IMG/VR virus record: IMGVR_UViG_2778261166_000004
Source of the DNA: a virus
Lineage: Duplodnaviria > Heunggongvirae > Uroviricota > Caudoviricetes
Length of the DNA stretch: 13,069 bases
Reading direction: 5' to 3' (one strand)
The notes below the pieces were generated by a model. The model was not told the DNA's origin. It worked only from the letters and a program-made list of their open reading frames with translations, and did not search any database. The translations under genes and the position numbers were made by a program. Positions 1 through 13,069 of the stretch are shown piece by piece; position 1 is the first letter of the stretch; each line of letters opens with the position of its first letter.

Positions 1-1260
1 ATGAAGCTCAACGCCAGACAGGTCGAGACCGCAAAGCCAAAAGACAAAACCTACAAAATGGCCGATGGTGGTGGTTTGTATCTTGAGGTTTCGGCCAAAG
101 GTTCCAAATACTGGCGCATGAAATACAGACGTCCCTCTGACAAAAAAGAGGATCGTCTCGCTTTTGGTGTTTGGCCTACTGTGACGCTTGCTCAGGCAAG
201 AGCAAAACGCGATGAAGCTAAAAAGCTTTTAGTACAGGGCATAGACCCAAAAGTCGTACAAAAAGAAGCTCAGGCCGAGAATTCGGGGGCATATACTTTT
301 GAAACTATCGCCCGAGAATGGCATGCCAGTAACAAGCGCTGGAGTGAAGACCATCGAGCGCGCGTTCTTCGCTATCTTGAGCTTTATATCTTCCCTCATA
401 TCGGTTCGTCCGACATTCGGCAGCTTAAAACCAGCCACCTGTTAGCCCCGATTAAAAAAGTTGATGCCAGTGGCAAACACGATGTCGCTCAGCGCCTGCA
501 ACAGCGCGTCACAGCCATTATGCGTTATGCCGTACAGAACGATTACATCGACTCAAATCCAGCCAGCGATATGGCTGGTGCACTATCGACAACCAAAGCG
601 CGCCATTATCCTGCTTTACCTTCTAGCCGGTTCCCTGAGTTTCTTGCACGTCTTGCTGCATATCGTGGTCGCGTAATGACGCGGATTGCGGTTGAGCTTT
701 CCTTACTAACTTTTGTGCGTTCCAGTGAGTTACGTTTCGCGCGTTGGGATGAGTTTGATTTCGATAAATCTCTCTGGCGAGTACCTGCAAAACGAGAAGA
801 AATTAAAGGAGTGCGTTATTCGTACCGTGGCATGAAGATGAAAGAAGAGCATATCGTTCCGCTTAGTCGGCAAGCGATGATTTTGCTAAACCAGTTAAAG
901 CAGATTAGTGGTGATAAAGAACTGCTTTTTCCGGGGGATCATGACGCAACTAAGGTTATGAGTGAAAATACAGTAAATAGCGCATTGCGTGCGATGGGCT
1001 ATGACACGAAAACCGAAGTTTGCGGGCACGGGTTTAGAACGATGGCGCGTGGAGCATTAGGGGAATCAGGCTTATGGAGTGATGATGCGATTGAACGTCA
1101 GCTAAGTCACTCAGAACGTAATAATGTACGTGCTGCTTATATTCATACATCTGAGCATTTAGACGAAAGGCGTTTAATGATACAGTGGTGGGCAGATTAT
1201 TTAGATAGAAATAAGAAAGAAAGTATTACACCATATGATTTTGCTAGACAACTTAAATAG
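1..1260 (+). CDS. int: P4-type tyrosine integrase (site-specific recombinase)
   Basis: 419-aa ORF. The N-terminus carries the P4-integrase arm-binding signature (MKLNARQVETAKPKDKTYKMADGGGLYLEV...KYWRMKYR). The C-terminal catalytic region has HGFRTMARG (His-x-x-Arg) and a downstream Tyr in AAYIHTSEHL. It sits at the edge of the element next to the presumed tRNA attachment site outside the window. Confidence 0.92.
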   Translation: MKLNARQVETAKPKDKTYKMADGGGLYLEVSAKGSKYWRMKYRRPSDKKEDRLAFGVWPTVTLAQARAKRDEAKKLLVQGIDPKVVQKEAQAENSGAYTFETIAREWHASNKRWSEDHRARVLRYLELYIFPHIGSSDIRQLKTSHLLAPIKKVDASGKHDVAQRLQQRVTAIMRYAVQNDYIDSNPASDMAGALSTTKARHYPALPSSRFPEFLARLAAYRGRVMTRIAVELSLLTFVRSSELRFARWDEFDFDKSLWRVPAKREEIKGVRYSYRGMKMKEEHIVPLSRQAMILLNQLKQISGDKELLFPGDHDATKVMSENTVNSALRAMGYDTKTEVCGHGFRTMARGALGESGLWSDDAIERQLSHSERNNVRAAYIHTSEHLDERRLMIQWWADYLDRNKKESITPYDFARQLK

Positions 1261-1266
1261 TATTTT

Positions 1267-1304
1267 AACCTAGCCAGAATTTTTGTAGTCTCGCTGGCTA
1301 GGTT
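1267..1304. terminator. Perfect 11-bp inverted repeat (aacctagccag / ctggctaggtt) between convergent int and cassette genes; probable bidirectional terminator
   Basis: Seen directly: stem 1267-1277 pairs with 1294-1304 around a 16-nt loop, flanked by A/T-rich sequence. It lies in the 54-nt gap between the int stop (1260) and the minus-strand gene end (1315). Confidence 0.5.
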
Positions 1305-1314
1305 AATTTAAAAG

Positions 1315-1899
1315 CTAATCATTCACATCAAGAGTTAAGAGTGCGTGCATTCTTTTAACAATCATAATGATATTCAAAATTAAATGTACGCAAACATATA
1401 TTATGAGTGGGCATAAAAAATAGTATAACACATTTAATTTTAGAGTTGTGTTTATTATGCTGACATAATATTCATGTGTTTTGCCGTAAAAGAATCCTGA
1501 TTGATTGACAGGAAACAGTGATACTATAAAACACAACACGACTAACAAAACTCCACATAAAATTGAATAACAAATGTTATAATAAAGTTCAGTGAGTAAT
1601 GCTTTCTTTGATTCATAGAATGTATCAATATCTTTTCTTTGTCTTATTTTTGATTCTTGATCATATACTAAAACAAGAACGCTAAGCAGTAATGCTGTTA
1701 GTATTGCACTGAAATTAACTAATAATGATATTAAATCTTTTGTTATACCACTTCCTAGGAGTGAGAATGCGGCAGAAATAATAAATGGTAGTATTATGAA
1801 TGTAAATATATCCCATAAACTGATCTTATTAGTGTCAGCATTTTTTAAAGTTCTGAAGTGGCCTATAAGAACTTCGCATATATTTATCTTTGAACTCAT
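1315..1899 (-). CDS. Small integral membrane protein (four predicted transmembrane helices); candidate effector of the cargo cassette
   Basis: 194-aa ORF with four long hydrophobic stretches (approx. residues 27-49, 56-79, 106-128, 155-181) separated by short charged loops. Its ATG overlaps the stop of the upstream gene (TAATG) and AGGAG lies 9 nt upstream, indicating translational coupling. The DNA is strongly AT-rich compared with the P4 backbone. Confidence 0.75.
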   Translation of the reverse strand: MSSKINICEVLIGHFRTLKNADTNKISLWDIFTFIILPFIISAAFSLLGSGITKDLISLLVNFSAILTALLLSVLVLVYDQESKIRQRKDIDTFYESKKALLTELYYNICYSILCGVLLVVLCFIVSLFPVNQSGFFYGKTHEYYVSIINTTLKLNVLYYFLCPLIIYVCVHLILNIIMIVKRMHALLTLDVND

Positions 1900-2825
1900 T
1901 ACGCTCTCCTTATAGTAACACCACGATATAACAACTGTATATATTCCATGATAATAACATCAACAAAATTATTTAGTGATGCTATTTCCGGCATGCCATC
2001 ATAAAAAACAACTTGTTCTTCATCAAATAAAATTTCACATACAGCTCCCCTTGCTGTTGTTCCAATATGAAAAGTTCTTTTTCTGCCATTATCTAATTCA
2101 ACAACTGTTTTTACTGTTTCTCCATATTCTTTAAGGACTTCAACGAGTTGATATTGCTCCGAGCCTCTGGAGAAATAGTCTCGAAGTCTTCCAAGTCCTG
2201 CATTTCGAGGCGGTTTGATAATTAATTCTTGCTCGTTATGGCCTAGCTTTTTGGCTTGTTCAGCTACATCTGTAATGCCATGGAATTTAGTTACCTTGAT
2301 TTCTTTGGTAATGGCATCCATCCATTTTTCAATCGCTTTATCATACGCCAGAGGGTTCATTTGAATCACTAAGTTGGTAACCCTCTTGAAATAATCTGAA
2401 AACAATCTCATAAAAAGAGTTTTTATACCATCACCTCTATATGTATGTAAAAACGCCATGCCTTCATTTACATCTCTAGGAATATAAAAATGTATGTAAT
2501 ATCTAATTATTTCAGCATTGTTTTTTGTCTTTTCGAAGTCTACATCGCCAGTTTTAATGTTTATTATGTCGGTCTTTGTTCCGTAATATCCAGACTCGAA
2601 CCATCCATATATTTCTCGATTGTTGTTATCGCGTGTAATCTCATTAAAACGAAAAACTTGTTTGGTTTCTTCAGAAAGGATATATTCTTCATTATACTGC
2701 TTAATAAATTCATCGAGTATATCAAGTAAATCATGTTCTCTGATGTTACTCAGTGCTGAATAACGTTGTTCTTTGGCTGCGTTCGGATTGTAGCAGCGGA
2801 AAAGATACGGTGCTAAAGCGTGCAT
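1899..2825 (-). CDS. Hypothetical soluble protein (308 aa), first gene of the cargo cassette; candidate sensor/regulator partner of the membrane protein
   Basis: Uninterrupted 308-codon ORF with a strong RBS (GGAGA, 6-nt spacer) before the ATG at 2825. The product is Lys/Glu/Tyr/Asn-rich with no hydrophobic segments. I see no Walker A, HNH, PD-(D/E)xK or nucleotidyltransferase GS...DxD motif. It is AT-rich and co-oriented with, and overlapping, the downstream membrane gene. Confidence 0.75.
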   Translation of the reverse strand: MHALAPYLFRCYNPNAAKEQRYSALSNIREHDLLDILDEFIKQYNEEYILSEETKQVFRFNEITRDNNNREIYGWFESGYYGTKTDIINIKTGDVDFEKTKNNAEIIRYYIHFYIPRDVNEGMAFLHTYRGDGIKTLFMRLFSDYFKRVTNLVIQMNPLAYDKAIEKWMDAITKEIKVTKFHGITDVAEQAKKLGHNEQELIIKPPRNAGLGRLRDYFSRGSEQYQLVEVLKEYGETVKTVVELDNGRKRTFHIGTTARGAVCEILFDEEQVVFYDGMPEIASLNNFVDVIIMEYIQLLYRGVTIRRA

Positions 2826-2900
2826 TGTTATCTCCTTTTTTAATGGAGATTAGCAACTTATCACTATAAGATCAACGAACGTTCAATATGGAAAGGGATA
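2826..2900 (-). promoter_or_regulatory. Putative promoter region of the cargo operon
   Basis: AT-rich 5' region just upstream of the operon RBS. On the minus strand there is a TTGAAC ... TGATAA/TATAGT arrangement, but the spacing is not canonical. The call rests mainly on position. Confidence 0.3.
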
Positions 2901-3059
2901 ATTCTGCTTGGTATTTTTCTTTTAATAATATTGGGGTGCTTTAGTGCGATATTTTGATGATTAGTGTGTGTTCGGCAGTAGAAGCTATCCATAGGCAGTG
3001 ATGTTTCTGCATATAGAATGTTTTAATTATCAAACACATAATTTTCGATTGCGCGCGCA

Positions 3060-3078
3060 GTGCTTTCCCCGCCTCGCC
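3060..3078 (-). other. cos site: 19-nt P2/P4 cohesive-end sequence (GGCGAGGCGGGGAAAGCAC on the minus strand)
   Basis: The plus strand reads gtgctttccccgcctcgcc, the exact reverse complement of the recalled P2/P4 cohesive-end sequence. It lies between psu and the cargo cassette, where cos sits in P4. A GC-rich hairpin follows at about 3079-3100. Confidence 0.85.
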
Positions 3079-3185
3079 CGCCCGCTTTGCGGGGCGGTTT
3101 TAATGCAGTTGCACTGACACGCTCAGGCCGTGCCGGGAATGGCGCGGTATACAGAAAATGAGGCAGGAAAACGCATGCAAAGCCA

Positions 3186-3216
3186 TGCACCTTATCGATG
3201 CATGGCTTTTTTCAGT
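3186..3216 (-). terminator. Hairpin downstream of psu (gccatgca...tgcatggc) with flanking T/A runs; possible late-operon terminator
   Basis: 8-bp inverted repeat around a 9-nt loop, 30-60 nt beyond the psu stop. It is followed by a T-run on the plus strand and by TTTGCATGCGTTTT on the minus strand. Orientation is ambiguous. Confidence 0.4.
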
Positions 3217-3242
3217 AAAAACAGGCGGATTTTCGGGGAATT

Positions 3243-3815
3243 TTACACAGACTGACGTGATGCCAGTTGCGCACTTTTACGCGAAAAAATCATGTTCTGC
3301 GCAGGAGTGAATTTTTCACGGCTGTCATCCACCGAAGCCGCGTCAGGCCTGAATCCGATGGTCGTTAAAATGTCGCTATCCTGTGCGGAATAATTAATTT
3401 TTTCCCCCTTCGCAAGCCAGGACAGAAGGGCTTCACGCAGGGCATCTGTGGCACGCTGTATGGCACAGTTTCGGGCAATGGCCGTCAGCTCACTGTAGCC
3501 CATCAGCTCCGGTGCCAGTGCCGCCGCCAGTGCTGTGCCGTGCTGCTGCATAAAATCATTCAGCCGGTCGCGGATGCTGATGTGCTGAACGGCTTCATGC
3601 GAACGAATATAACGACCGGCGGCCTGATTCACCTGCCATTTTCTGACTTCGATAATATTGCGTAATTCGTCCAGGCGACTGACGTTTCTGCCTTCTCCTG
3701 ACAGAAGCCGCAGGTATTCCTGTTCGGCCGCTGCCAGCTCATTTTTGCGTTGCAGCCATGCTGCTTTGTTATTCTGACAGGTGTCAAAGGCCTGCTGTAA
3801 GGCTGTGCTTTCCAT
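3243..3815 (-). CDS. psu: Psu (polarity suppression / capsid decoration protein, Rho antagonist)
   Basis: 190-aa ORF, the length of P4 Psu, last in the sid-delta-psu order next to cos. The N-terminal sequence MESTALQQAFDTCQNNKAAW matches my recollection of P4 Psu. Not verified by alignment. Confidence 0.88.
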   Translation of the reverse strand: MESTALQQAFDTCQNNKAAWLQRKNELAAAEQEYLRLLSGEGRNVSRLDELRNIIEVRKWQVNQAAGRYIRSHEAVQHISIRDRLNDFMQQHGTALAAALAPELMGYSELTAIARNCAIQRATDALREALLSWLAKGEKINYSAQDSDILTTIGFRPDAASVDDSREKFTPAQNMIFSRKSAQLASRQSV

Positions 3816-3888
3816 CGTTATCTCTTTCTCATCATGCTGAAGAATAAAAATACGGTGTGCGGCGACGGCCGGTGTTAACCGGCAGCCC

Positions 3889-4389
3889 TCATTCCAGACG
3901 CAGCGAATATGATTGTGTTTTTAAGCGTACTGGCGGCAGTTCCTGTTTTTCATGCAGGCTTTCTGCCAGTTCGTCCGGCGTGACCGGGCGGACAATGAAA
4001 CGGTTGATGGTCTGAAGCGTTTTAAACACCAGACCACAGCCCGGATCCGTGCACACATAAAAACGCTCGGTGACTTCCTGAGACAGACGCCTCGATGTTC
4101 TTGACAGTGCAAGGCCTTTACATCTCCGACAACAATATCCGGTAACAAGCATTCTTTTCGGGCGTTTCATACTGCCGGAGGCTGACGTCAGTGAATCGCG
4201 GTATCTCTGTTTGCCTGAAATGTATTCCATTCCTGAATCTTTACTGTCAGAGAAAAAGCTTTCACTCGCTTCAAATGTCGCAGAGCAATAAATATTCCGG
4301 CACTGTGCAATCATTATCTTGGTGCCATCGTCCATGAAATGTGCGCGGCGGGTGTGAGCAACATGTCCACACGACGGGCAGTAAATCAT
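3889..4389 (-). CDS. delta: Delta (Ogr-family zinc-finger late transcription activator, duplicated Ogr-like domains)
   Basis: 166-aa ORF, the length of P4 Delta. It has two Ogr-like Cys4 units (CPSCGHVAH...CRNIYCSATF and CCRRCKG...CTDPGCGLVF). Its ATG overlaps the sid stop (ATGA), and it lies between sid and psu. Confidence 0.9.
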   Translation of the reverse strand: MIYCPSCGHVAHTRRAHFMDDGTKIMIAQCRNIYCSATFEASESFFSDSKDSGMEYISGKQRYRDSLTSASGSMKRPKRMLVTGYCCRRCKGLALSRTSRRLSQEVTERFYVCTDPGCGLVFKTLQTINRFIVRPVTPDELAESLHEKQELPPVRLKTQSYSLRLE

Positions 4390-5120
4390 GACAGCAGTCC
4401 TCTGGCCTTAAGCTCTGCACCCTGCTGGTCTATTTTGTCCTGCCACACCTTGCGCTGTGCCGGTGTGCCTGCCACCTCATAATCCATGTGCGGGAGTGTT
4501 GCCGCTGACAGTCCGGTCAGCCGGAGAACCGGCTCGCCGGTGAGGCTGATTTGCATCTGTTTAATTTTCTGTTCCAGCGATGATTTCACCTGCTGCATGA
4601 CAGCCTTATCGGGTGCGACGTAGCCCTGATGGCCGGTGGTGTTGGCGAGCGGATTTTCCTGTACCAGGATACTCAGATGCATTGCCCGGACAAGCGCCTC
4701 ACAGGTTTCATTCAGGGCGTGTTCCAGCTCATGCTCTGCATACAGACTCAGAAGGTGATGATGTGCCTTCCGGTAGGCGGTGGCCGTGCTGTCACACGCC
4801 CCTTTCAGGCGTTCACGTTCGAAATTCAGCACCACGGCCAGATTGTCATATTCCTGTACCAGCTCCCGGCGTGCCACGCGCTCAATGTGGCGCTGTTTCA
4901 GCTCGTCGCTCAGGACACCACCGGCTGCACGAAAGGCCGTGCGCCAGTCGTCAGCGTCGTTTCCGTCGGCCTGCGCCAGCGCATTTTTTTCCTGCTCTGC
5001 CCGTTCAATGGCCGTGACGGTCTCATCCATCAGGCGGGCGTTCTCAAGATGGGCGGCTCTGGCCTTTTCCAGTTGTGCCAGCGCGGGTTGCAGATATTCA
5101 GGGATGGTGTTGTCAGACAT
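4386..5120 (-). CDS. sid: Sid (external scaffold / capsid size determination protein)
   Basis: The ORF track gives 250 aa from a GTG at 5138. The ATG at 5120 has a strong RBS (GAGGAG, 7-nt spacer) and gives 244 aa, the P4 Sid length, starting MSDNTIPEY. It is the first gene of the late operon. Confidence 0.88.
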   Translation of the reverse strand: MSDNTIPEYLQPALAQLEKARAAHLENARLMDETVTAIERAEQEKNALAQADGNDADDWRTAFRAAGGVLSDELKQRHIERVARRELVQEYDNLAVVLNFERERLKGACDSTATAYRKAHHHLLSLYAEHELEHALNETCEALVRAMHLSILVQENPLANTTGHQGYVAPDKAVMQQVKSSLEQKIKQMQISLTGEPVLRLTGLSAATLPHMDYEVAGTPAQRKVWQDKIDQQGAELKARGLLS

Positions 5121-5146
5121 TTTCCGGCTCCTCGTCACTTCAGGTT

Positions 5147-5210
5147 AAGAAAATTGTGACGTACACCGGACAACAACACGACGCATTGCAGATGTGCCAG
5201 CCCTGACACA
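5147..5210 (-). promoter_or_regulatory. Psid-type late promoter with two TGT-N12-ACA Delta/Ogr binding dyads
   Basis: Seen: TGT-N12-ACA at 5193-5210 and again at 5155-5172. If transcription starts near 5147 (27-nt leader to sid), these are centred near -55 and -18. That matches the recalled arrangement of P4 late promoters, which have a second Delta site near -18. Confidence 0.55.
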
Positions 5211-5289
5211 GGAGACTCATCCTCAGACCGGCAAGCCAGGAAAAGGTCGCAGGAAAAACCGGCTTACTGTTTGTTTTTTTATATTTTAC

Positions 5290-5393
5290 TGTTCACCTCT
5301 GTTCACCATAAGAAAAAAGATAAGTAATACAGTAATTTAAAGGGTGAACAATCGCAGTAATGACTGTTCACCGTCTGTTCACCACTGTTCACC
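5290..5393. repeat. ori-like cluster of type I iterons (octamer TGTTCACC, six copies in both orientations)
   Basis: Seen: TGTTCACC at ~5290, 5300, 5365, 5376, 5386 and inverted GGTGAACA at ~5343, followed by an AT-rich tract (5400-5480). It lies between the divergent late promoters, ~4.8 kb from the second iteron cluster, consistent with P4 ori versus crr. Confidence 0.7.
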
Positions 5394-5551
5394 CGTTCAT
5401 GGACTTTTTGTGCTGTTTATTACTTTTTATTTTTATTAATTAACTGAAATAAATAAGAAAAAACAATTTGTATTTCACTATAATTTTTTCCAGCTCCTTC
5501 CAGAGCGTTTTAAAGCTATCTGGCGCTGATGTACAAAAAATACACAGTCAT

Positions 5552-5620
5552 TGTAAGGCTGCCGGAACAAATCCCCCCTGTTGCGTCTGCTGAAAATATT
5601 CACAAAATAAAGCGCTACCC
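5552..5620 (+). promoter_or_regulatory. PLL-type late leftward-operon promoter (single TGT-N12-ACA Delta dyad) upstream of vis
   Basis: TGT-N12-ACA seen at about 5551-5569 (tgtaaggctgccggaaca). This predicts a start near 5614, ~58 nt before the vis ATG and ~400 nt upstream of the sigma70-like promoter at 5974-6003, matching the recalled PLL-PLE spacing in P4. The -10 is weak, as expected for an activator-dependent promoter. Confidence 0.45.
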
Positions 5621-5671
5621 GAAGCCGGACGGACTTATCCGGTGCTGTATGGACATTAACGAGGTAGCCCG

Positions 5672-5938
5672 ATGCAAGCTGTTTTTTCTTCCCCGTCTCC
5701 CGCCCCTGTGACGCCACTGATGCCGCTGCCGGACATCACGCAGGAGCGTTTTTTACGTCTGCCGGAAGTGATGCACCTGTGCGGCCTGTCACGCTCGACC
5801 ATCTACGAACTCATCCGTAAGGGGGAATTTCCGCCGCAGGTGAGTCTTGGCGGTAAAAATGTGGCCTGGCTGCACTCTGAAGTCACCGCATGGATGGCCG
5901 GACGCATTGCCGGACGCAAACGGGGGTACGACGCATGA
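5672..5938 (+). CDS. vis: Vis (AlpA-family helix-turn-helix regulator / excision directionality factor)
   Basis: 88-aa ORF with the AlpA-type HTH signature ([27 protein letters not shown]). It is the first gene after the PLL-like promoter. GAGG lies ~7 nt upstream of the ATG. Confidence 0.8.
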
Positions 5939-5973
5939 TGATGCCCGCTCTGCAAAAACTCCCTTTTTCTGGC

Positions 5974-6003
5974 TTGCCTTTTTCCGGCATTTGCGGATAT
6001 AGT
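5974..6003 (+). promoter_or_regulatory. Sigma70-like promoter (PLE-like early promoter): TTGCCT, 18-nt spacer, TATAGT
   Basis: Seen directly at 5974-5979 and 5998-6003. It lies just downstream of vis and ~400 nt downstream of the PLL-like site. Confidence 0.5.
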
Positions 6004-6066
6004 TTTTCCGCTGCCGCAAAATCGGCAGCCGGGCGTGAGAACCCGAGCAATTCACAGGCGACATAT

Positions 6067-6088
6067 GACGCGCCACGCGTCTTTTTTT
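6067..6088 (+). terminator. Intrinsic terminator (gacgcg-cca-cgcgtc followed by T7) ~60-80 nt downstream of the early promoter
   Basis: Seen: 6-bp GC-rich stem, 3-nt loop, then seven T residues. A second hairpin (gctgccg / cggcagc, 6010-6029) lies between promoter and terminator. The geometry suggests a short attenuated transcript or small RNA, as in the P4 immunity region. Confidence 0.6.
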
Positions 6089-6336
6089 GTGTCGCAATCA
6101 ATGCCACAGAGCGCCAGATTATGGTGTGGTGTGTGGTCAGTCGTGCAGATGGCATTCCGTGCATCCTGCCTGCGTCCGCTCATTATGCCGCAGAGTCAAT
6201 GGTAGCTCAGGCGGGGCAGCCTCCGGGCTGGCCGGTATCCTGTGAAGCCGGTATTCTCACCCCCGTCTGGGCTATCGCCATCGAGCGTGAGAACTCCGGC
6301 GATAGCGTTATTTGCTATTCACAGGAGGCTGCCATC

Positions 6337-6534
6337 ATGGCTACAACCCTTACCCCCTCACACCCTGAATTTGTCTTTGTGTTTGCGGCTGTCCGTCGCG
6401 CAGACCGTCATCCCCGTATCTGTATGCTTCGCACCGTCGCCGGTGATGAACGCAGTGCCCGCCGTTCCCTTGTCCGTGACTATGTGCTCTCCCTTGCTGC
6501 CCGTCTGCCGGTGGTGGAGGTGTCCCGTGCGTAA
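6337..6534 (+). CDS. Hypothetical small protein (65 aa) nested in a longer open frame (5935/6121/6199..6534)
   Basis: ATG at 6337 is preceded by AGGAGG with an 8-nt spacer. The product ([65 protein letters not shown]) looks protein-like. The same frame stays open upstream to 5890/5935 (199 aa from the ATG at 5935), but that part spans the promoter and terminator above and is Cys/Trp/Pro-rich. The true start is uncertain. Confidence 0.45.
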
Positions 6535-6814
6535 TAAAAAAGCCCCTCAGACCGTCTCAGCGCGTCATGACGCCCGTGAACACCTCAGCATTGAGGCTTA
6601 CCATAAGCTCAACCGCGCCAGCGCCGTATCCCAGTTTGTTGGGGGTGATTTGATTCACCGTGAACTCTCCGGCCTGCATCAGCTCTACATTCCGCATATT
6701 TTCAGCTACCTGAATGAAGATATTGATTTTGTGCTGAATGAACTGAAAGCCAAAGGCCTGTGCCGCGATTTTCTCGCCCAGCAGAAAGACCGGGGAGACA
6801 GGACGCATGTTTGA
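6527..6814 (+). CDS. epsilon: Epsilon (helper-prophage derepression protein)
   Basis: A GTG start at 6527 with GGAGG 9 nt upstream gives exactly 95 aa, the P4 Epsilon length. The in-frame upstream extension to 6242 is low-complexity Pro/Ser/Leu-rich and looks non-coding. The stop overlaps the start of orf151. Confidence 0.75.
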
Positions 6815-7262
6815 TTTTCCCCAGCCCGGTGAGATTTACCGTTCTGCCGGTTTTCCCGATGTGGCCGTGGTCGGCATTCTGGAAGACGGTATTCCGTGGG
6901 AAATGCCGTACCGCTGCCCGGACATTGTCTGGAACCCGTACCGCCGTAAATTCAGTATCCTTGTGCGTATCCTCGCTGACGGGCGCACCACAGACATCCC
7001 GCTGGGGCGTTTTCTGCGGGAATTTACCTGTGACCGTCCTGACCTGTTTAAACGCAGCCCCGTAAACCGGCATGCGGTACTGAAAGAAATGGCCGGAGAC
7101 CCGGAATTACAGAAATGGCGGGAGAAATATCTGGATATTTACCCGCAGGACCCTGTTCCGGTCAGCCGGGCGGCACCGGTGGCGCGGGAATGGCGGGAAA
7201 TCCCCCGCACGGAGCCTGACCCGGAAATCACACCGGATAACAGTTACCGCAATTATCTGTAA
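6807..7262 (+). CDS. P4 orf151-like protein (function unknown)
   Basis: 151-aa ORF in the conserved position between epsilon and alpha. Its start overlaps the epsilon stop (ATGTTTGA). Confidence 0.75.
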   Translation: MFDFPQPGEIYRSAGFPDVAVVGILEDGIPWEMPYRCPDIVWNPYRRKFSILVRILADGRTTDIPLGRFLREFTCDRPDLFKRSPVNRHAVLKEMAGDPELQKWREKYLDIYPQDPVPVSRAAPVAREWREIPRTEPDPEITPDNSYRNYL

Positions 7263-7397
7263 TTAAAAAACGACACCCGAAAAATTAAATGTGCGTATTC
7301 GCGCAGGGATACGCACGTCTTCAGGAGACGCAGATATGCCTTATCAGTTAATGCAACCGGCACGGAATGCAGTCATCTGTCACAGGGAGGAAAACAA

Positions 7398-7718
7398 ATG
7401 AAAACACCCTTACCGCCCGTCTTACGCGCAGCCCTTTACCGTCGCGCTGTCGCCTGTGCCTGGCTGACCGTGTGCGAACGTCAGCACCGCTACCCGCATC
7501 TCACCCTTGAATCACTGGAGGCGGCCATCGCCGCTGAGCTGGAAGGCTTTTATCTGCGCCAGCACGGTGAGGAAAAAGGGCGCCAGATAGCCTGTGCCCT
7601 GCTGGAAGATTTAATGGAATCCGGCCCCCTGAAGGCCGCGCCGTCGCTGTCCTTTCTCGGGCTGGTTGTGATGGATGAACTCTGTGCCCGTCACATAAAA
7701 GCGCCGGTACTGCACTGA
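7398..7718 (+). CDS. P4 orf106-like protein (function unknown)
   Basis: 106-aa ORF immediately upstream of alpha, with GGAGG 8 nt before the ATG. Confidence 0.75.
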
Positions 7719-7732
7719 AGGAGAACAACACC

Positions 7733-10066
7733 ATGAAAATGAACGTAACCGCCACCGTCAGCCATGCGCTCGGCCACTGGCCGCGTATTCTCCCGGCGCT
7801 GGGGATTCAGGTGCTGAAAAACCGTCATCAGCCCTGTCCGGTCTGTGGCGGGAGTGACCGCTTCCGTTTTGATGACAGGGAGGGGCGCGGCACCTGGTAC
7901 TGCAATCAGTGTGGTGCCGGTGACGGCCTGAAACTGGTTGAAAAGGTGTTTGGTGTTTCCCCGTCCGACGCGGCCACAAAGGTGGCTGCCGTGACCGGCA
8001 GCCTGCCCCCGACTGACCCGGCAGTGACGGCTGCCGCCGGTGCTGAAACAGACGCTGCCCGGAAGAACGCCGCCGCACTGGCACAAACCCTGATGGCGAA
8101 AACCCGTCCCGGAACCGGTAACGCCTACCTGACCCGCAAGGGCTTTCCCGGCCGGGAATGCCGGATGCTGACCGGCACACACAGAGCCGGTGGCGTGAGC
8201 TGGCGTGCCGGTGACCTTGTGGTGCCACTGTATGACGACAGCGGCGAACTGGTTAACCTTCAGTTAATCAGTGCTGACGGCCGTAAGCGCACCCTGAAAG
8301 GCGGGCAGGTCAGGGGCACCTGTCACATCCTTGAAGGACAGAATCAGGCCGGAAAACGTCTGTGGATAGCGGAGGGATACGCGACCGCACTTACCGTGCA
8401 TCACCTGACCGGTGAAACGGTGATGGTGGCGCTTTCTTCCGTGAACCTCCTTTCTCTGGCCAGCCTTGCCCGACAGAAGTATCCGGCCTGTCAGATTGTC
8501 CTTGCCGCAGACCGTGACCTCAGCGGTGACGGCCAGACAAAAGCCGCCGCAGCCGCAGATGCGTGTGAGGGCGTTGTTGCCCTGCCGCCGGTCTTCGGTG
8601 ACTGGAATGATGCCTTCACGCAGTACGGCGGGGAGGCCACCCGTAAGGCCATTTACGATGCCATCCGGCCACCGGCTGAAAGCCCGTTCGACACCATGAG
8701 CGAAGCAGAGTTTTCCGCCATGAGTACCAGCGAAAAGGCCATGCGTATCTATGAGCATTACGGCGAGGCGCTCGCGGTCGATGCCAACGGCCAGCTTCTG
8801 TCCCGCTATGAAAATGGTGTCTGGAAGGTACTGCCACCACAGGACTTTGCCCGGGATGTGGCCGGGCTGTTTCAGCGTCTGCGCGCGCCGTTCTCCTCCG
8901 GGAAAGTGGCCTCCGTGGTGGACACCCTGAAGCTGATTATTCCGCAGCAGGAAGCCCCCTCCCGCCGCCTGATTGGCTTTCGTAACGGCGTGCTCGACAC
9001 GCAGAACGGCACGTTCCACCCGCACAGTCCGTCACACTGGATGCGTACCCTGTGCGATGTGGATTTCACCCCGCCGGTGGACGGTGAAACGCTGGAGACC
9101 CACGCCCCCGCGTTCTGGCGCTGGCTTGACCGTGCCGCCGGTGGCCGTGCGGAAAAACGCGACGTGATTCTGGCTGCACTGTTTATGGTGCTGGCAAACC
9201 GCTACGACTGGCAGCTCTTTCTGGAGGTGACCGGTCCCGGCGGCAGCGGCAAAAGTATCATGGCCGAAATAGCCACCCTGCTGGCCGGGGAGGATAACGC
9301 CACGTCGGCCACCATTGAGACGCTGGAATCCCCGCGTGAACGTGCCGCGTTAACTGGCTTCTCACTGATACGCCTGCCGGACCAGGAAAAATGGAGCGGC
9401 GACGGAGCCGGACTCAAGGCCATCACCGGCGGCGATGCGGTGTCCGTTGACCCGAAATACCGGGATGCGTACTCCACGCACATCCCGGCGGTGATTCTGG
9501 CCGTGAACAATAACCCGATGCGCTTCACCGACCGCAGCGGCGGCGTGTCACGCCGGCGGGTGATTATTCACTTCCCGGAACAGATAGCCCCGCAGGAGCG
9601 CGACCCGCAGCTTAAGGACAAAATCACCCGCGAGCTGGCGGTCATCGTGCGTCACCTGATGCAGAAGTTCAGCGACCCGATGCTCGCCCGGTCACTGCTT
9701 CAGTCCCAGCAGAACTCAGACGAGGCGCTGAACATCAAACGGGATGCCGACCCGACGTTTGATTTTATCGGCTATCTGGAAACCCTGCCGCAGACCAGCG
9801 GCATGTATATGGGGAACGCCAGTATCATCCCGCGCAATTACCGTAAATACCTCTATCACGCCTATCTGGCCTACATGGAGGCAAACGGCTACCGGAATGT
9901 ACTCAGTCTGAAAATGTTCGGGCTGGGGCTGCCGGTGATGCTGAAGGAATACGGACTGAATTACGAGAAGCGCCATACCAAACAGGGGATACAGACCAAC
10001 CTGACGCTGAAAGAGGAAAGCTACGGCGACTGGCTGCCAAAATGTGAAGACCCTGCAACAACCTGA
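7733..10066 (+). CDS. alpha: Alpha: bifunctional primase-helicase and origin-binding replication protein
   Basis: 777-aa ORF, the P4 Alpha length. It has an N-terminal zinc-binding primase motif (CPVCGGSDRFRFDD...WYCNQCG), a TOPRIM-like acidic region (LAADRD), and a Walker A P-loop (GPGGSGKS) in the helicase domain. RBS AGGAG. Iteron clusters flank the operon. Confidence 0.95.
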   Translation: MKMNVTATVSHALGHWPRILPALGIQVLKNRHQPCPVCGGSDRFRFDDREGRGTWYCNQCGAGDGLKLVEKVFGVSPSDAATKVAAVTGSLPPTDPAVTAAAGAETDAARKNAAALAQTLMAKTRPGTGNAYLTRKGFPGRECRMLTGTHRAGGVSWRAGDLVVPLYDDSGELVNLQLISADGRKRTLKGGQVRGTCHILEGQNQAGKRLWIAEGYATALTVHHLTGETVMVALSSVNLLSLASLARQKYPACQIVLAADRDLSGDGQTKAAAAADACEGVVALPPVFGDWNDAFTQYGGEATRKAIYDAIRPPAESPFDTMSEAEFSAMSTSEKAMRIYEHYGEALAVDANGQLLSRYENGVWKVLPPQDFARDVAGLFQRLRAPFSSGKVASVVDTLKLIIPQQEAPSRRLIGFRNGVLDTQNGTFHPHSPSHWMRTLCDVDFTPPVDGETLETHAPAFWRWLDRAAGGRAEKRDVILAALFMVLANRYDWQLFLEVTGPGGSGKSIMAEIATLLAGEDNATSATIETLESPRERAALTGFSLIRLPDQEKWSGDGAGLKAITGGDAVSVDPKYRDAYSTHIPAVILAVNNNPMRFTDRSGGVSRRRVIIHFPEQIAPQERDPQLKDKITRELAVIVRHLMQKFSDPMLARSLLQSQQNSDEALNIKRDADPTFDFIGYLETLPQTSGMYMGNASIIPRNYRKYLYHAYLAYMEANGYRNVLSLKMFGLGLPVMLKEYGLNYEKRHTKQGIQTNLTLKEESYGDWLPKCEDPATT

Positions 10067-10081
10067 CCCTCATGACTCATC

Positions 10082-10107
10082 TGACCGGCATCTGCCGGTC
10101 TTTTTTT
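10082..10107 (+). terminator. Intrinsic terminator after alpha (tgaccggca-tc-tgccggtc followed by T7)
   Basis: Seen: GC-rich stem and T7 run beginning 16 nt after the alpha stop. Confidence 0.7.
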
Positions 10108-10125
10108 ATCCCTGAATTCCCCGAA

Positions 10126-10398
10126 GGTGAACAATCCACTGTTCACCCTTCACCGTATATTCACCTGTTATCACACTGAAATTAAAAGAGAAAAACGAAA
10201 GGTGAACAGTGTGAACAATCAAATCAAAAAAAACTTTTTTCTCCCTGTGTGATTTTCAGTACGGGGGATTAATCACCGGTATGAGTCACACCGGCAGAAT
10301 GCCGGAGGTGAAGAATCGAATGTTCACCCTTCACCCATTATTCACCACCTATCATACTGAAATAAAAGGAGAAAAAAGAAAGGTGAACAGTGTGAACA
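10126..10398. repeat. crr-like cis replication region: two ~77-bp direct repeats (about 10140-10216 and 10321-10398), each carrying TGTTCACC / GGTGAACA iterons
   Basis: Seen: the two copies align nearly base for base (tgttcacccttcacc...ttcacc...ctgaaat...gaaaggtgaacagtgtgaaca). An additional inverted iteron is at 10126-10133. The region is AT-rich and lies downstream of alpha. Confidence 0.7.
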
Positions 10399-10610
10399 GT
10401 TCTTTCGAAAAAAAAATTTTTATGTGGATAAAAGATGCACTGGTTTGGATCCGGGCTACGGATCCAAACTTACTGATTAAAAATTATTTAACTTTCCGAT
10501 TTATTGATGGGCTGAAAATAGATTGGTCAGAAAAACAGTGGGGGCACAAAAGGGGGCATATTTCATTGTTGTGTTTTATTATTTGTTTTTTATCATTAAC
10601 TTATTTTAAT

Positions 10611-10632
10611 GTTTGAGTCCGGCCTTCGCACC
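10611..10632 (+). other. Putative attR core: tRNA 3'-end-like sequence (gtttgagtccggccttcgcacc)
   Basis: It resembles the T-arm/acceptor end of a tRNA (GGTTCGAGTCCGGCCTTCGGCACCA-like, as recalled for tRNA-Leu leuX, the classical P4 attachment site). P4-family elements integrate into tRNA 3' ends and leave a partial copy at the far junction. Similarity is judged by eye. Confidence 0.4.
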
Positions 10633-10662
10633 TTCGCACCTTCGCACCTTCGCACCTTCGCA
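10623..10662 (+). repeat. Tandem octamer array (ccttcgca x5 perfect, plus a degenerate sixth copy to 10670)
   Basis: Seen directly. The unit is the distal end of the tRNA-like att core. Confidence 0.85.
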
Positions 10663-10866
10663 CCATCGGAACATCAATAGACATCAACGGACGTTTTTTT
10701 ATGACTGAAATCCGCGCCACACAAGGCTTTTCGCTATTTTTCGCTCAACCTAAGTCAACCTACATCAACTTACTGATGTGGATACAGCTACAGCTGCGGC
10801 TATATCCCGATTCGATAATGTTTGTACCCACACAAAACCCTTGAAAGGCTACAAGGCTGAAATTGT

Positions 10867-11052
10867 CTAAACCATAGAGATGATTTTTATGATCCAGTCT
10901 TTCTCTTGTTGAGATAGTTCCAGTTTGCTCACTCGTGTTAAGAAGGTATTGATCACCTGAACATCCGAATTGGTGAGCCTATTTAATAGAGCGGGTGGTA
11001 TACCTTTACTAACAATCGCTTTGCGGTGACTTTCGTAGTTTTTATTACTCAT
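10867..11052 (-). CDS. Hypothetical small protein (61 aa)
   Basis: ORF with GAGGA 8 nt upstream of the ATG. No family recognised. It lies outside the satellite, between attR and the HNH gene. Confidence 0.35.
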   Translation of the reverse strand: MSNKNYESHRKAIVSKGIPPALLNRLTNSDVQVINTFLTRVSKLELSQQEKDWIIKIISMV

Positions 11053-11108
11053 TGTTGATCCTCAAAAATCATTGTATGGCGGCATTGATCGTTTCCAGCA
11101 ACCTTTAC

Positions 11109-11351
11109 TTACTCACTTCGAACTGCATCCTCGTAGACTGTTCCACTACAATAATCGAAAAGGCGCGGATGTCCATTCAGGTATCCCGCTAATACGTATA
11201 GCAATAACAATGGCTTATGCGGCGCGCGCTGTTCACCCTTGTGCCAGATTTTTATATTGGCAATTGCCTGCTGTAGCGATTTACTGGAAGCCATTGATAT
11301 CCCTGGCAGTGAAATAATTGCGATCATGCTCGCAAATTTTCTGCTGTTCAA
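11109..11351 (-). CDS. Hypothetical small ORF (80 aa from TTG; 61-72 aa from internal ATGs); possibly a gene remnant
   Basis: The ORF-track start is TTG. Internal ATGs lack a convincing RBS. It is in a different frame from the adjacent 61-aa ORF, so the two could be a frameshifted remnant of one gene. Confidence 0.2.
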   Translation of the reverse strand: MNSRKFASMIAIISLPGISMASSKSLQQAIANIKIWHKGEQRAPHKPLLLLYVLAGYLNGHPRLFDYCSGTVYEDAVRSE

Positions 11352-11430
11352 GCCTGCAAGTGAAGATATATTACCTTGATCTCATTTGTTTTTTTGCTGC
11401 CTGTTCTGAGAACGTATAAGGACATTCTCC

Positions 11431-12081
11431 ATGAATAAACTCCCTGATCATCTTCCGCGGCGGTATATCATCGAAGCTATCCATTTATGGGATGCGGGAG
11501 AAACTCATCAGTTCCAGCCTGCGCGGTTGTATGAGATTGAATATCATGGCCGACGTTACCCCTCGAAGGCGATTGCTGGCATCGCAGCGACATTGATGAC
11601 GGGGACGCAATTTACCCCTGCGGATTTCACCGGCGGAATAAAATCTAAATGTGTCAAGCTACTCATAGAGCAGGGATTTCATATTCATCTGGATAAAGCC
11701 GCTGCGGCTCCCATAGCCGACGTTCTGTTCCCGGATGAGTTGCCGTCGCAGGAGACATACCTTGAAGGTGCGGCGATAAAGGTGACAGTAAACCGCTATG
11801 AACGCGATAAAAAGGCCCGAGATAAAGCGGTCGAACATCATGGATGCCAGTGCAACGTATGCGGTGTTGATCTGGTGAAGATCTATGGTGATATCGCTGA
11901 AGGCTTTATCCATGTGCATCACCTGGTGCCGCTGTCAGCCATTAAAGAGGATTACCAGCTGGATCCAGTTAATGATTTGCTGCCTGTGTACCCTAATTGC
12001 CATGCGATGTTGCACCGACGCAAACCACCGTTTACGCCGGAGCAGTTAAAAGCGCTGATGGATGCGAATAAATCAAATTAA
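11431..12081 (+). CDS. HNH endonuclease family protein with an uncharacterised N-terminal domain (possible McrA-like modification-dependent restriction nuclease)
   Basis: 216-aa ORF. The C-terminus has an HNH-type motif set (CQCNVCG...HVHHLVPLS...N...YPNCHAMLH). The N-terminal ~100 aa is unrecognised. Confidence 0.7.
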   Translation: MNKLPDHLPRRYIIEAIHLWDAGETHQFQPARLYEIEYHGRRYPSKAIAGIAATLMTGTQFTPADFTGGIKSKCVKLLIEQGFHIHLDKAAAAPIADVLFPDELPSQETYLEGAAIKVTVNRYERDKKARDKAVEHHGCQCNVCGVDLVKIYGDIAEGFIHVHHLVPLSAIKEDYQLDPVNDLLPVYPNCHAMLHRRKPPFTPEQLKALMDANKSN

Positions 12082-12088
12082 TGAACGC

Positions 12089-13069
12089 TCACCTTTCGCG
12101 CCAAAACTGCAAAATTGCTTCTACAAACTTGTCAGAAATAATCCCCCGACGGGCTGCCGTGCTGAAATGACTGCTTCGCAGTGCCGTCGTCCAGTTCTCC
12201 GGTGACCGGTACGCTGAACCGTAATATCCCGTGCTTAAATCGTCCGGGTCTTCATCAGGCGCGTTCGTCAGTCCTCTTTCACCTTGTTGCTGGAAGTCGA
12301 CGAAAATAATATTGGCTAAAACATTATTTTGATAATTGCCATAAATAACTTCATACGCATGAGGGAAATTTTCTTTCCAGTACCAGGTGGTATCGCCGCA
12401 AAACCACGGTGCGTCAGTAATATTATTAAGCTGAGAATGGTATTGTTTTAGATCCCTACGAAAGGCTTCAACCATATGATTAAAGTGTTGAGGGTGTGAC
12501 GCGTAGTCACTGGTCATTAAGTCAAATTCGCCTTGCATCCAGCATACGCCGAGGAATTTGTTATGCGGATTTTTTGCCAGTGCGGCTCGCGTTCTGCTGA
12601 CTAAATCCTGGTATAGCGGAGTATCCGTTCCCCAACGACAAGCATCATGGCTGGCTCCGTGCCGTTCTGAATATGTCCCTTCGCTGCCCGCGGTAAAAGC
12701 CGATCCGCCACGGCAACACGGAACGATGAGAACCCCTGCATTATCAGGAATAAAGGGCAGTAATTTCCGTGCTATATGCAGTGCCTGGCCAACGGTGCCG
12801 TACTGTGTTTGATGATTCGTTGCCAGAGGATGGTGATAACCCTGCATATCCTGAACATCGTGTGGGCAGTGAGTCAGTGGAATAATGTCGTTAAAGTGAC
12901 ATGACGGGCCTCCGGGATGCGTATGCGCAAATCTCGCTAATTGTTTAATTCTGGGATGAGGCGCATCTTCCCTGTCCGGTAATGGCAGTCCTTCGCCATA
13001 CGCCATGGCATTAGACTGACCAGCAACGGTAAGAATATAGTAATAATCAGGCGATATTATTGCGTTCAT
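12089..13069 (-). CDS. nanS: Sialate O-acetylesterase (NanS/YjhS-like, SASA/SGNH-type)
   Basis: 326-aa ORF whose start is at the window edge. It has a GQSN motif near the N-terminus (TVAGQSNAMAYG), typical of sialate O-acetylesterases. Length and sequence match my recollection of E. coli YjhS/NanS, which lies near the leuX/fim region. Confidence 0.7.
   Translation of the reverse strand: MNAIISPDYYYILTVAGQSNAMAYGEGLPLPDREDAPHPRIKQLARFAHTHPGGPSCHFNDIIPLTHCPHDVQDMQGYHHPLATNHQTQYGTVGQALHIARKLLPFIPDNAGVLIVPCCRGGSAFTAGSEGTYSERHGASHDACRWGTDTPLYQDLVSRTRAALAKNPHNKFLGVCWMQGEFDLMTSDYASHPQHFNHMVEAFRRDLKQYHSQLNNITDAPWFCGDTTWYWKENFPHAYEVIYGNYQNNVLANIIFVDFQQQGERGLTNAPDEDPDDLSTGYYGSAYRSPENWTTALRSSHFSTAARRGIISDKFVEAILQFWRER

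Follow-up and report, generated by a model that had tools for sequence, protein, structure and literature searches.

An AT-rich accessory hotspot with a Rex-like two-gene cassette in a P4-like satellite

Two groups of described systems come close to the locus presented here. P4-like satellites have an accessory hotspot between psu/cos and int, which Rousset et al. described in 2022 (PMC9122126) and Moura de Sousa et al. took up again in 2026 (PMC13586616). In the latter paper, six of the eight unannotated hotspot loci that were tested proved antiviral, and none of the six active systems named there fits the description of the cassette treated below. The second group comprises RexA/RexB of phage lambda and its divergent counterparts, RexABpp of P. 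putida and the gene pairs of the mycobacteriophages Sbash (gp30/31), CarolAnn (gp44/43) and Butters (gp30/31), which, unlike our cassette, are experimentally supported. In this study, we have analysed a window of 13,069 nucleotides (nt), the whole stretch of DNA taken from IMG/VR virus record IMGVR_UViG_2778261166_000004, in which a P4-like satellite carries an AT-rich island between its integrase gene and its cos site. We hold with good confidence that this island is a P4 hotspot with a probable Rex-type abortive-infection cargo, presumably exchanged by recombination in its flanks. The hotspot phenomenon has been published, and so has the occurrence of this cassette in the slot: Table S1 of Rousset et al. 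(PMC9122126) contains the exact protein pair. Our analysis adds the junctions at base level (3053; 1207-1246), the co-inheritance of int and cargo within a lineage and the distribution of the cassette outside P4-like elements.

The accessory slot between int and cos

We identify the island with the accessory hotspot known from P4-like satellites; in the P4 reference, the corresponding slot holds gop-beta-cII. The borders of the island are formed by the following features:

1-1260, plus strand: gene of a P4-type tyrosine integrase (int), 419 amino acids (Pfam Arm-DNA-bind_3, Phage_int_M and Phage_integrase)
1208-1260, plus strand: variable tail encoding the int C-terminus, the left exchange junction zone (from homology breakpoints)
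2881-3052, no strand assigned: AT-rich, cassette-specific spacer up to the right junction (from sequence comparison)
3053-3078, no strand assigned: right junction, a conserved GCGCGCA followed by the 19-nt P2/P4 cos (from the four-cargo alignment and megablast starts)
3078-3097, plus strand: GC-rich stem-loop followed by TTTT, abutting cos and part of the backbone (terminator-like in a scan)

The slot lies between int and cos/psu in an element with the core genes psu, delta, sid, alpha and int, and its conserved flanks enclose unrelated content in different elements. In other elements the same position is taken by a TIR-domain protein, a DEAD-box helicase with a small protein, or a SIR2 protein, and these elements share 98.7-99.2% identity with the window over the cos-psu flank. 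The island itself (1.8 kb) is found in 7 of the 5426 complete E. coli genomes surveyed, against 2255 for the cos-psu flank. An earlier, sequence-only reading had taken the island for a swappable cargo module on a conserved satellite backbone; different cargos at one slot of near-identical backbones bear this out, and the two genome counts contradict the notion that related elements all carry this same cassette. The slot, its flanks, the sharp edge by cos and the AT-rich variable cargo are all as published for the P4 hotspot, from which the locus shows no difference in kind.

The right junction falls at 3052/3053, as four elements with four unrelated cargos are identical from 3053 on in their alignment. 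Among the matches listed, the megablast alignments to E. coli begin at 3049-3054, mostly at 3053, and the P2-like phage pro147 matches 3053-3125. Bases 1-19 of the linear P4 genome recur at 3060-3078 as their reverse complement, the cos 19-mer GTGCTTTCCCCGCCTCGCC, so the element has a P2/P4 cos site with the variable region abutting it, the right edge of variability stopping 7 nt short of the 19-mer. The terminator-like stem-loop begins at the final base of this 19-mer and is kept in all P4-like elements aligned. The spacer on the cargo side of the junction shows no homology to elements with other cargo and weak similarity to a Salmonella element that has a homologous cassette.

On the left, the window shares 94.0% identity with P4 int over positions 1-1207. 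Homology stops at 1207, and P4 int runs on to 440 amino acids with an unrelated tail. Against the int gene of strain HS4 homology ends at about 1217, and against the nearest other alleles at 1210 or 1246, which puts the left edge of variability within the last 15-55 nt of int. In the tail at 1208-1260, the Salmonella element with the homologous cassette is more like the window than HS4 is. Neither direct nor terminal inverted repeats flank the island. When the element is aligned with other P4-like elements, as the sequence-only reading had proposed, synteny thus breaks at 3053 and at 1207-1246 with different cargo in the slot, and the surmise that the exchange junction may lie inside the int 3' end is confirmed. 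Of the two boundaries proposed for the island, the edge at cos is exact (3053), while the inverted repeat behind int is not the left boundary.

The compositional island had been described as an abrupt drop and return in GC content, and sliding-window and codon-usage profiles both show the discontinuity. In 200-nt windows the GC content falls from 0.43-0.52 to 0.28-0.40 (about 1150 to 3000) and returns to 0.43-0.51. A two-breakpoint maximum-likelihood fit over 1-10632 sets the low-GC segment at 1119-3050 (log-likelihood ratio 151), with 0.323 inside and 0.540 elsewhere in 1-10632, and the GC content at third codon positions (GC3) is 0.24 and 0.28 for the two cargo genes vs 0.49-0.71 for psu, delta, sid and alpha. 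Other AT-rich stretches of the window lie at 5300-5500 (P4 ori) and about 10100-10600 (crr/attP), the island being by far the longest. The alternative cargos of the slot are AT-rich as well (TIR, helicase and SIR2: GC 0.31-0.37), as is the gop-beta-cII cargo of P4 itself (0.359). The last 120 nt of int are indeed as poor in GC as the sequence-only reading had stated (0.317 vs 0.481 for the gene body), and at 1119 the edge in composition precedes the homology breakpoints by about 90 nt. Since the HS4 int allele, which is linked to the TIR cargo, shares this property (GC 0.325 in its last 120 nt; the AT-rich stretch is roughly 84-90% conserved vs the window), the stretch at 1119-1207 seems to be a trait of the int type and not the mark of a junction, and we have rejected it as the site of exchange.

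The two-gene cassette and its likeness to Rex systems

The cargo is a self-contained, AT-rich two-gene operon with these parts:

1899-2825, minus strand: cytosolic protein of 308 amino acids with a RexA/RdgC-like fold, the proposed sensor (predicted model)
1315-1899, minus strand: inner-membrane protein of 194 amino acids, RexB-like in size, position and predicted topology, the proposed effector (model and hydropathy)
2826-2880, minus strand: 5' leader and proximal upstream region, conserved in the Salmonella cassette and diverging further upstream
1265-1306, no strand assigned: perfect-stem hairpin of 13 base pairs with a 16-nt loop, between the convergent stops of int (1260) and the membrane-protein gene (1315)

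The two genes overlap at ATGA, which combines the stop codon of the 308-residue gene with the start codon of the membrane-protein gene. The leader contains the Shine-Dalgarno sequence AAGGAG at 2832-2837, and TTGATC-N17-TAATCT (2875-2847) is a weak candidate for the promoter, below the threshold of the scan. Neither cargo protein matches Pfam, PADLOC or NCBIfam; both match PHROG families of unknown function, phrog_15250 in the case of the 194-residue protein. The AlphaFold2 model of the latter (predicted local distance difference test, pLDDT, 80) has helices at residues 28-48, 54-87, 95-127 and 157-192 in addition to an N-terminal helix, and its hydropathy profile shows four hydrophobic segments with K/R-rich N-terminal and central stretches, like lambda RexB. 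Conservation in this protein concentrates in the N-terminus MSSKIN..GH..TL, the second helix SLLVNF..TALLLSVLVLVYD and the C-terminal MIVKRMH.LLT, all invariant or near-invariant, and these motifs may serve in partner contact or in a pore.

With lambda RexA/RexB the cassette shares a resident mobile element as carrier and a two-gene operon in which a cytosolic protein is followed by a small four-helix membrane protein (order rexA, rexB); a small protein with four transmembrane helices lies directly downstream of the RexA-like gene. The best Protein Data Bank (PDB) match of the 308-residue model is RexA, and the predicted structure has the RexA/RdgC fold. The cassette differs from the lambda system in its longer proteins (308 vs 279 and 194 vs 144 amino acids), in not standing beside an immunity repressor and in having no Pfam RexA/RexB match or significant profile similarity. 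The same slot and the same two-gene architecture are found in system 22 of Rousset et al. (Pfam RexA + 4TM; pFR86) and in their pFR81 ('RexA + 4TM'), although our comparison with the two cloned Rex-like proteins, which gave no sequence signal, used single-sequence templates and is insensitive.

Several results weigh against a closer relationship. Foldseek with the 308-residue model against the PDB gave no match, nor did a sequence-profile search of the PDB. None of the 73 members of the 308-residue family (the window protein and 72 relatives) matches Pfam RexA (PF15969), against which lambda RexA, as a control, scores 1e-97. Alignment with the RexA family by hhalign yields a probability of 2% with a shallow profile and of 29-35% (P about 4e-4) with deeper ones; in the control, the score of the real alignment was reached by one of 20 block-shuffled RexA alignments, and a single short motif, ELIIKPPR vs IVIKPKFKR, accounts for much of the signal. 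For the membrane protein, neither hhalign nor Foldseek against the BFVD viral models gave any link to RexB, and Pfam PF15968 is not matched. In view of this weak sequence evidence, the cassette is Rex-like in architecture and fold and not a member of the RexA/RexB sequence families. The sizes of the two proteins (a membrane protein of ~190 and a soluble protein of ~310 amino acids) also recall Kiwa (membrane protein KwaA and DUF4868 protein KwaB), which occurs in the P4 hotspot too (Table S2B); we have rejected this candidate, since neither DUF4868 nor the PADLOC Kiwa models are matched and the soluble protein is encoded first, the reverse of the Kiwa order.

The cassette is not confined to the satellite studied here. 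At 50% identity, the family of the 308-residue protein comprises at least 1,353 clusters with E <= 1e-3, and it has no Pfam model. In 29 of the 30 loci with downstream sequence, down to 36% identity, the membrane-protein gene follows directly; the exception has a gap of 2.7 kb. Even at ~21% identity, the downstream partner of one family member matches the membrane-protein profile (E = 1e-17). The cassette is found in P4-like elements of Salmonella, Pectobacterium and Pantoea, beside the integrase of a Pseudomonas prophage, in a Pseudomonas phage named PfAC16, on a small Shewanella island and on Acinetobacter plasmids. In Vibrio cholerae a homologous cassette ends a filamentous prophage (Zot, replication protein; 10001-11498 of that locus), and this prophage adjoins an RTX toxin gene. 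In all 15 hosts checked, those of 60% GC included, the cassette is more AT-rich than its flanks. The ~21%-identity pair lies on a metagenomic contig (1886-6477) and directly follows two genes, one for a HerA-like (DUF87) ATPase and one that faintly matches methyltransferases, a neighbourhood that resembles a defence island.

The hairpin behind the operon had been read as a perfect 11-bp inverted repeat at 1267-1304 and as the terminator of int. The repeat is present, but as part of a longer one with 13-nt arms at 1265-1277 and 1294-1306, which are 100% complementary. It folds with -20.3 kcal/mol on the plus and -18.9 kcal/mol on the minus strand (z = -3.9 and -4.6), and none of 200 shuffles was as stable. 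The function assigned to it was not upheld: the stem is strong, but with a 16-nt loop and a U-tract on neither strand the hairpin lacks the hallmarks of a rho-independent terminator and is not reported by the terminator consensus scan. In the light of the long loop and the missing T-tract, the label of int terminator is unproven, and we consider the hairpin a candidate bidirectional terminator or protective stem-loop. It is situated 50-100 nt within the variable part. In the Salmonella element with the homologous cassette the stem core CTAGCCAG/CTGGCTAG is retained and the loop has diverged; outside the closest relatives the hairpin is not conserved downstream of the cassette. Other hosts have unrelated hairpins, many with T-tracts, in the same position after the membrane-protein gene, and therefore some stem-loop at the end of the operon seems to be favoured. 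A further 13-nt perfect inverted repeat, GTTTGATAATTAA / TTAATTATCAAAC, has one arm within the 308-residue gene (2213-2225), while its second arm (3023-3035) is 18 nt away from the right junction; by a rough estimate, it could be explained by chance in such AT-rich DNA.

Backbone, int-cargo linkage and mode of exchange

The satellite nature of the window is evident from Pfam profiles matching int, Psu and Ogr_Delta, and the P4 immunity RNAs C4, isrK and c4-a1b1 are matched by Rfam at 5997-6282, as expected for a P4-like element. The first letter of the window is that of the int start codon, and beyond cos the following genes belong to the backbone:

3243-3815, minus strand: psu, the first backbone gene right of the hotspot (Pfam Psu, E = 1e-88)
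3889-4389, minus strand: delta
4386-5138, minus strand: sid
7733-10066: alpha primase gene

Positions 3079-10632 align with P4 11624-4079 at 97.8% identity, the last bases lying inside the attP core; as judged from this alignment, the backbone from cos to attR is that of an ordinary P4. In the complete E. coli genomes with the same int-cargo block (99.7-100% identity), the element adjoins tRNA-Leu. Because the P4 alignment stops in the attP core and the carriers integrate at tRNA-Leu, we place the end of the element at ~10632, and the terminal 2.4 kb of the window is chromosomal flank.

We have compared the window with five carrier genomes, four of which were also compared pairwise. Over positions 1-3078 (int, cargo and cos), any two elements differ by 0-5 nt; the int genes of the carriers show no difference from the window, and neither does the tRNA/attL stretch among the carriers. 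Positions 3079-10632, by comparison, hold 52-175 differences (0.7-2.3%) in a patchy distribution. The first backbone difference of the window is at 3091 vs every carrier, 13 nt beyond cos; between other pairs of carriers, the breakpoints are at 3156, 3306 or 4000. In several pairs, 48-55 differences are concentrated in 6001-7000 (the immunity/epsilon region), and this cluster looks like a recombination patch. The exact int allele (100%) occurs solely in the seven cassette carriers, the next closest alleles being 93-94% identical and all others diverged by at least 6%. Seven genomes match int plus cargo at 99.7-100%, but none of the complete E. coli genomes in the collection exceeds 98.8% identity over the backbone (3053-10632). 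From the near identity of 1-3078 against the diverged 3079-10632, it follows that, in terms of sequence, int and cargo have on the most recent time scale been inherited together as one nearly clonal block on diversified backbones, with the switch at cos. The older breakpoints in the int 3' end indicate that exchange of the cassette only has occurred too.

How the cargo changes hands can be modelled in several ways. We propose that it would be swapped via homologous recombination in conserved flanks, with int or att on one side and cos-psu on the other, and that a DNA end made by terminase at cos possibly assists. Rousset et al. (PMC9122126) speculated that ends produced at cos promote recombination; our linkage data are compatible with recombination promoted at cos but do not prove it, and it counts against our reading that for the exchange mechanism the breakpoints are all the evidence. 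The block pattern is also in keeping with a model in which not the cassette but the entire cos-to-att arm (cos, cargo, int and att) is the unit of exchange. Such an exchange could start from two P4 genomes that Int has joined at att, or that lie there as tandem integrants, with the helper terminase then cutting from cos to cos; alternatively, it would take two crossovers, one close to cos and the other beyond the element. An int allele identical among the cassette carriers and 6-7% diverged from all others, a left arm of near identity up to and including tRNA/attL, and a window that departs from every carrier just past cos all speak for this model. Yet other carrier pairs break at some distance from cos (3156, 3306 or 4000), the patchy right arm with its one kilobase of clustered differences suits ordinary homologous recombination with co-resident P4-like elements, and the int-cargo block would stay unrecombined simply because such elements offer no partner sequence for it. 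The older junctions in the int 3' end and published surveys, which describe cargo turnover among elements with identical core genes, also point to the cassette as a unit, so that we regard arm exchange as possible but rather doubtful. A transposon, insertion sequence or site-specifically inserted cassette with the hairpin as its recombination site is highly improbable. Sharp boundaries and a perfect palindromic stem close to one edge would suit it, but the island encodes neither a transposase nor a recombinase and is not flanked by repeats, other cargos of the slot lack the hairpin, and both its position 50-100 nt inside the variable region and its absence downstream of the cassette in hosts beyond the closest relatives run counter to such a role; lacking both repeats and recombinase, this reading was rejected.

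Two observations concern the wider surroundings. In two carrier genomes, ISEc12 (IS21 family) lies just upstream of the alpha primase gene (15538-17840 of those loci), and these satellites may be disabled, though their cassette is intact. Beyond attR (10633-13069), the window has an open reading frame at 11431-12081, apparently annotated as an HNH endonuclease in similar genomes, and a sialate O-acetylesterase gene at 12089-13069; within the same match, similar genomes also have a phosphorothioated-DNA-binding restriction endonuclease annotated, and a further defence locus may adjoin the leuX site.

Proposed function of the cargo and its meaning

By analogy with lambda RexAB and P. putida RexABpp, abortive infection would be the most likely function of the cargo. 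RexABpp depends on both of its genes; its soluble component binds DNA, and its membrane component causes damage to the membrane (PMC12894663). In the model that we propose for the cassette, the 308-residue RexA-fold protein would sense a cue of infection, probably phage DNA or a DNA-protein intermediate, and the activated 194-residue four-helix protein would then compromise the membrane or the energy supply of the cell. Growth of the infected cell would stop, the competing phage would be aborted and the host population of the satellite protected. To be set against this model is that we found no experimental test of the cassette, which is absent from the tested systems in Tables S2A/B of Rousset et al. 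(PMC9122126). Moreover, three other hotspot cassettes of the type 'X + 4TM', two of them labelled RexA-like, are listed in that study with the additional tested systems and not with the validated ones. Only a 2021 preprint reports moderate protection against P1vir by one unnamed RexAB analog.

Two other functional readings have to be weighed. The roles of the two proteins may be reversed, as reported for gp30/gp31 of mycobacteriophage Butters (PMC12894663), so that the RexA-fold protein is toxic, e.g., by clamping DNA, and the membrane protein restrains it until infection. A toxin-antitoxin-like pair of this kind would account equally well for the strict pairing and for the overlap of stop and start codons, and RexA-family proteins bind DNA non-specifically (PMC11077077). 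In four of the five described Rex-like systems, however, the membrane protein is the effector (PMC12894663), and the transmembrane helices, with the second-helix motif quoted above, are the most conserved parts of our membrane protein; therefore, an active membrane function fits better than a passive anchor, and we find the reversed logic unlikely. There is a similarly small chance that the cargo is not antiviral and instead serves a membrane or stress function, manipulates the helper phage or forms a selfish addiction module. The missing PADLOC, Pfam and NCBIfam matches and the standing of the related hotspot 'RexA + 4TM' cassettes outside the validated systems of the published screen would agree with this, as would the action of lambda RexA in the lysis-lysogeny switch independently of RexB, reported in PMC11077077. 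Against it, most tested cargos of the slot, unannotated ones included, are antiviral, unrelated mobile elements repeatedly have the cassette at accessory positions, a distant member adjoins HerA-like ATPase and methyltransferase-like genes, and a comparably divergent pair of a RexA-fold and a four-transmembrane-helix protein is a proven defence system. Abortive infection driven by a RexA-fold sensor and a membrane effector thus remains the reading that we favour.

Beyond the window, we put forward a broader proposal more tentatively, since we judge it somewhat more likely to fail than to hold. In this proposal, a large family, with at least 1,353 clusters at 50% identity, no Pfam model and the same membrane partner in all loci checked, would function in abortive infection: a RexA-fold protein would act as the sensor and a four-helix protein of a new kind as the effector. 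Such a system would differ from lambda RexAB and would owe its spread to satellites, plasmids, prophages and filamentous phages, and in this P4 lineage the whole cos-to-att arm would be the part exchanged.

In summary, the island marks an interchangeable slot for anti-phage cargo in P4-like satellites, and the region to clone is roughly 1261-3059. As both the principle and the protein pair have been published before, what the finding mainly confirms is that such slots can be located from base composition alone. The junctions and the linkage of int with the cargo provide concrete material on whether cos acts as a recombination boundary, as Rousset et al. had speculated. If the cassette is active, a large family would join a class in which only five systems have been described (PMC12894663).

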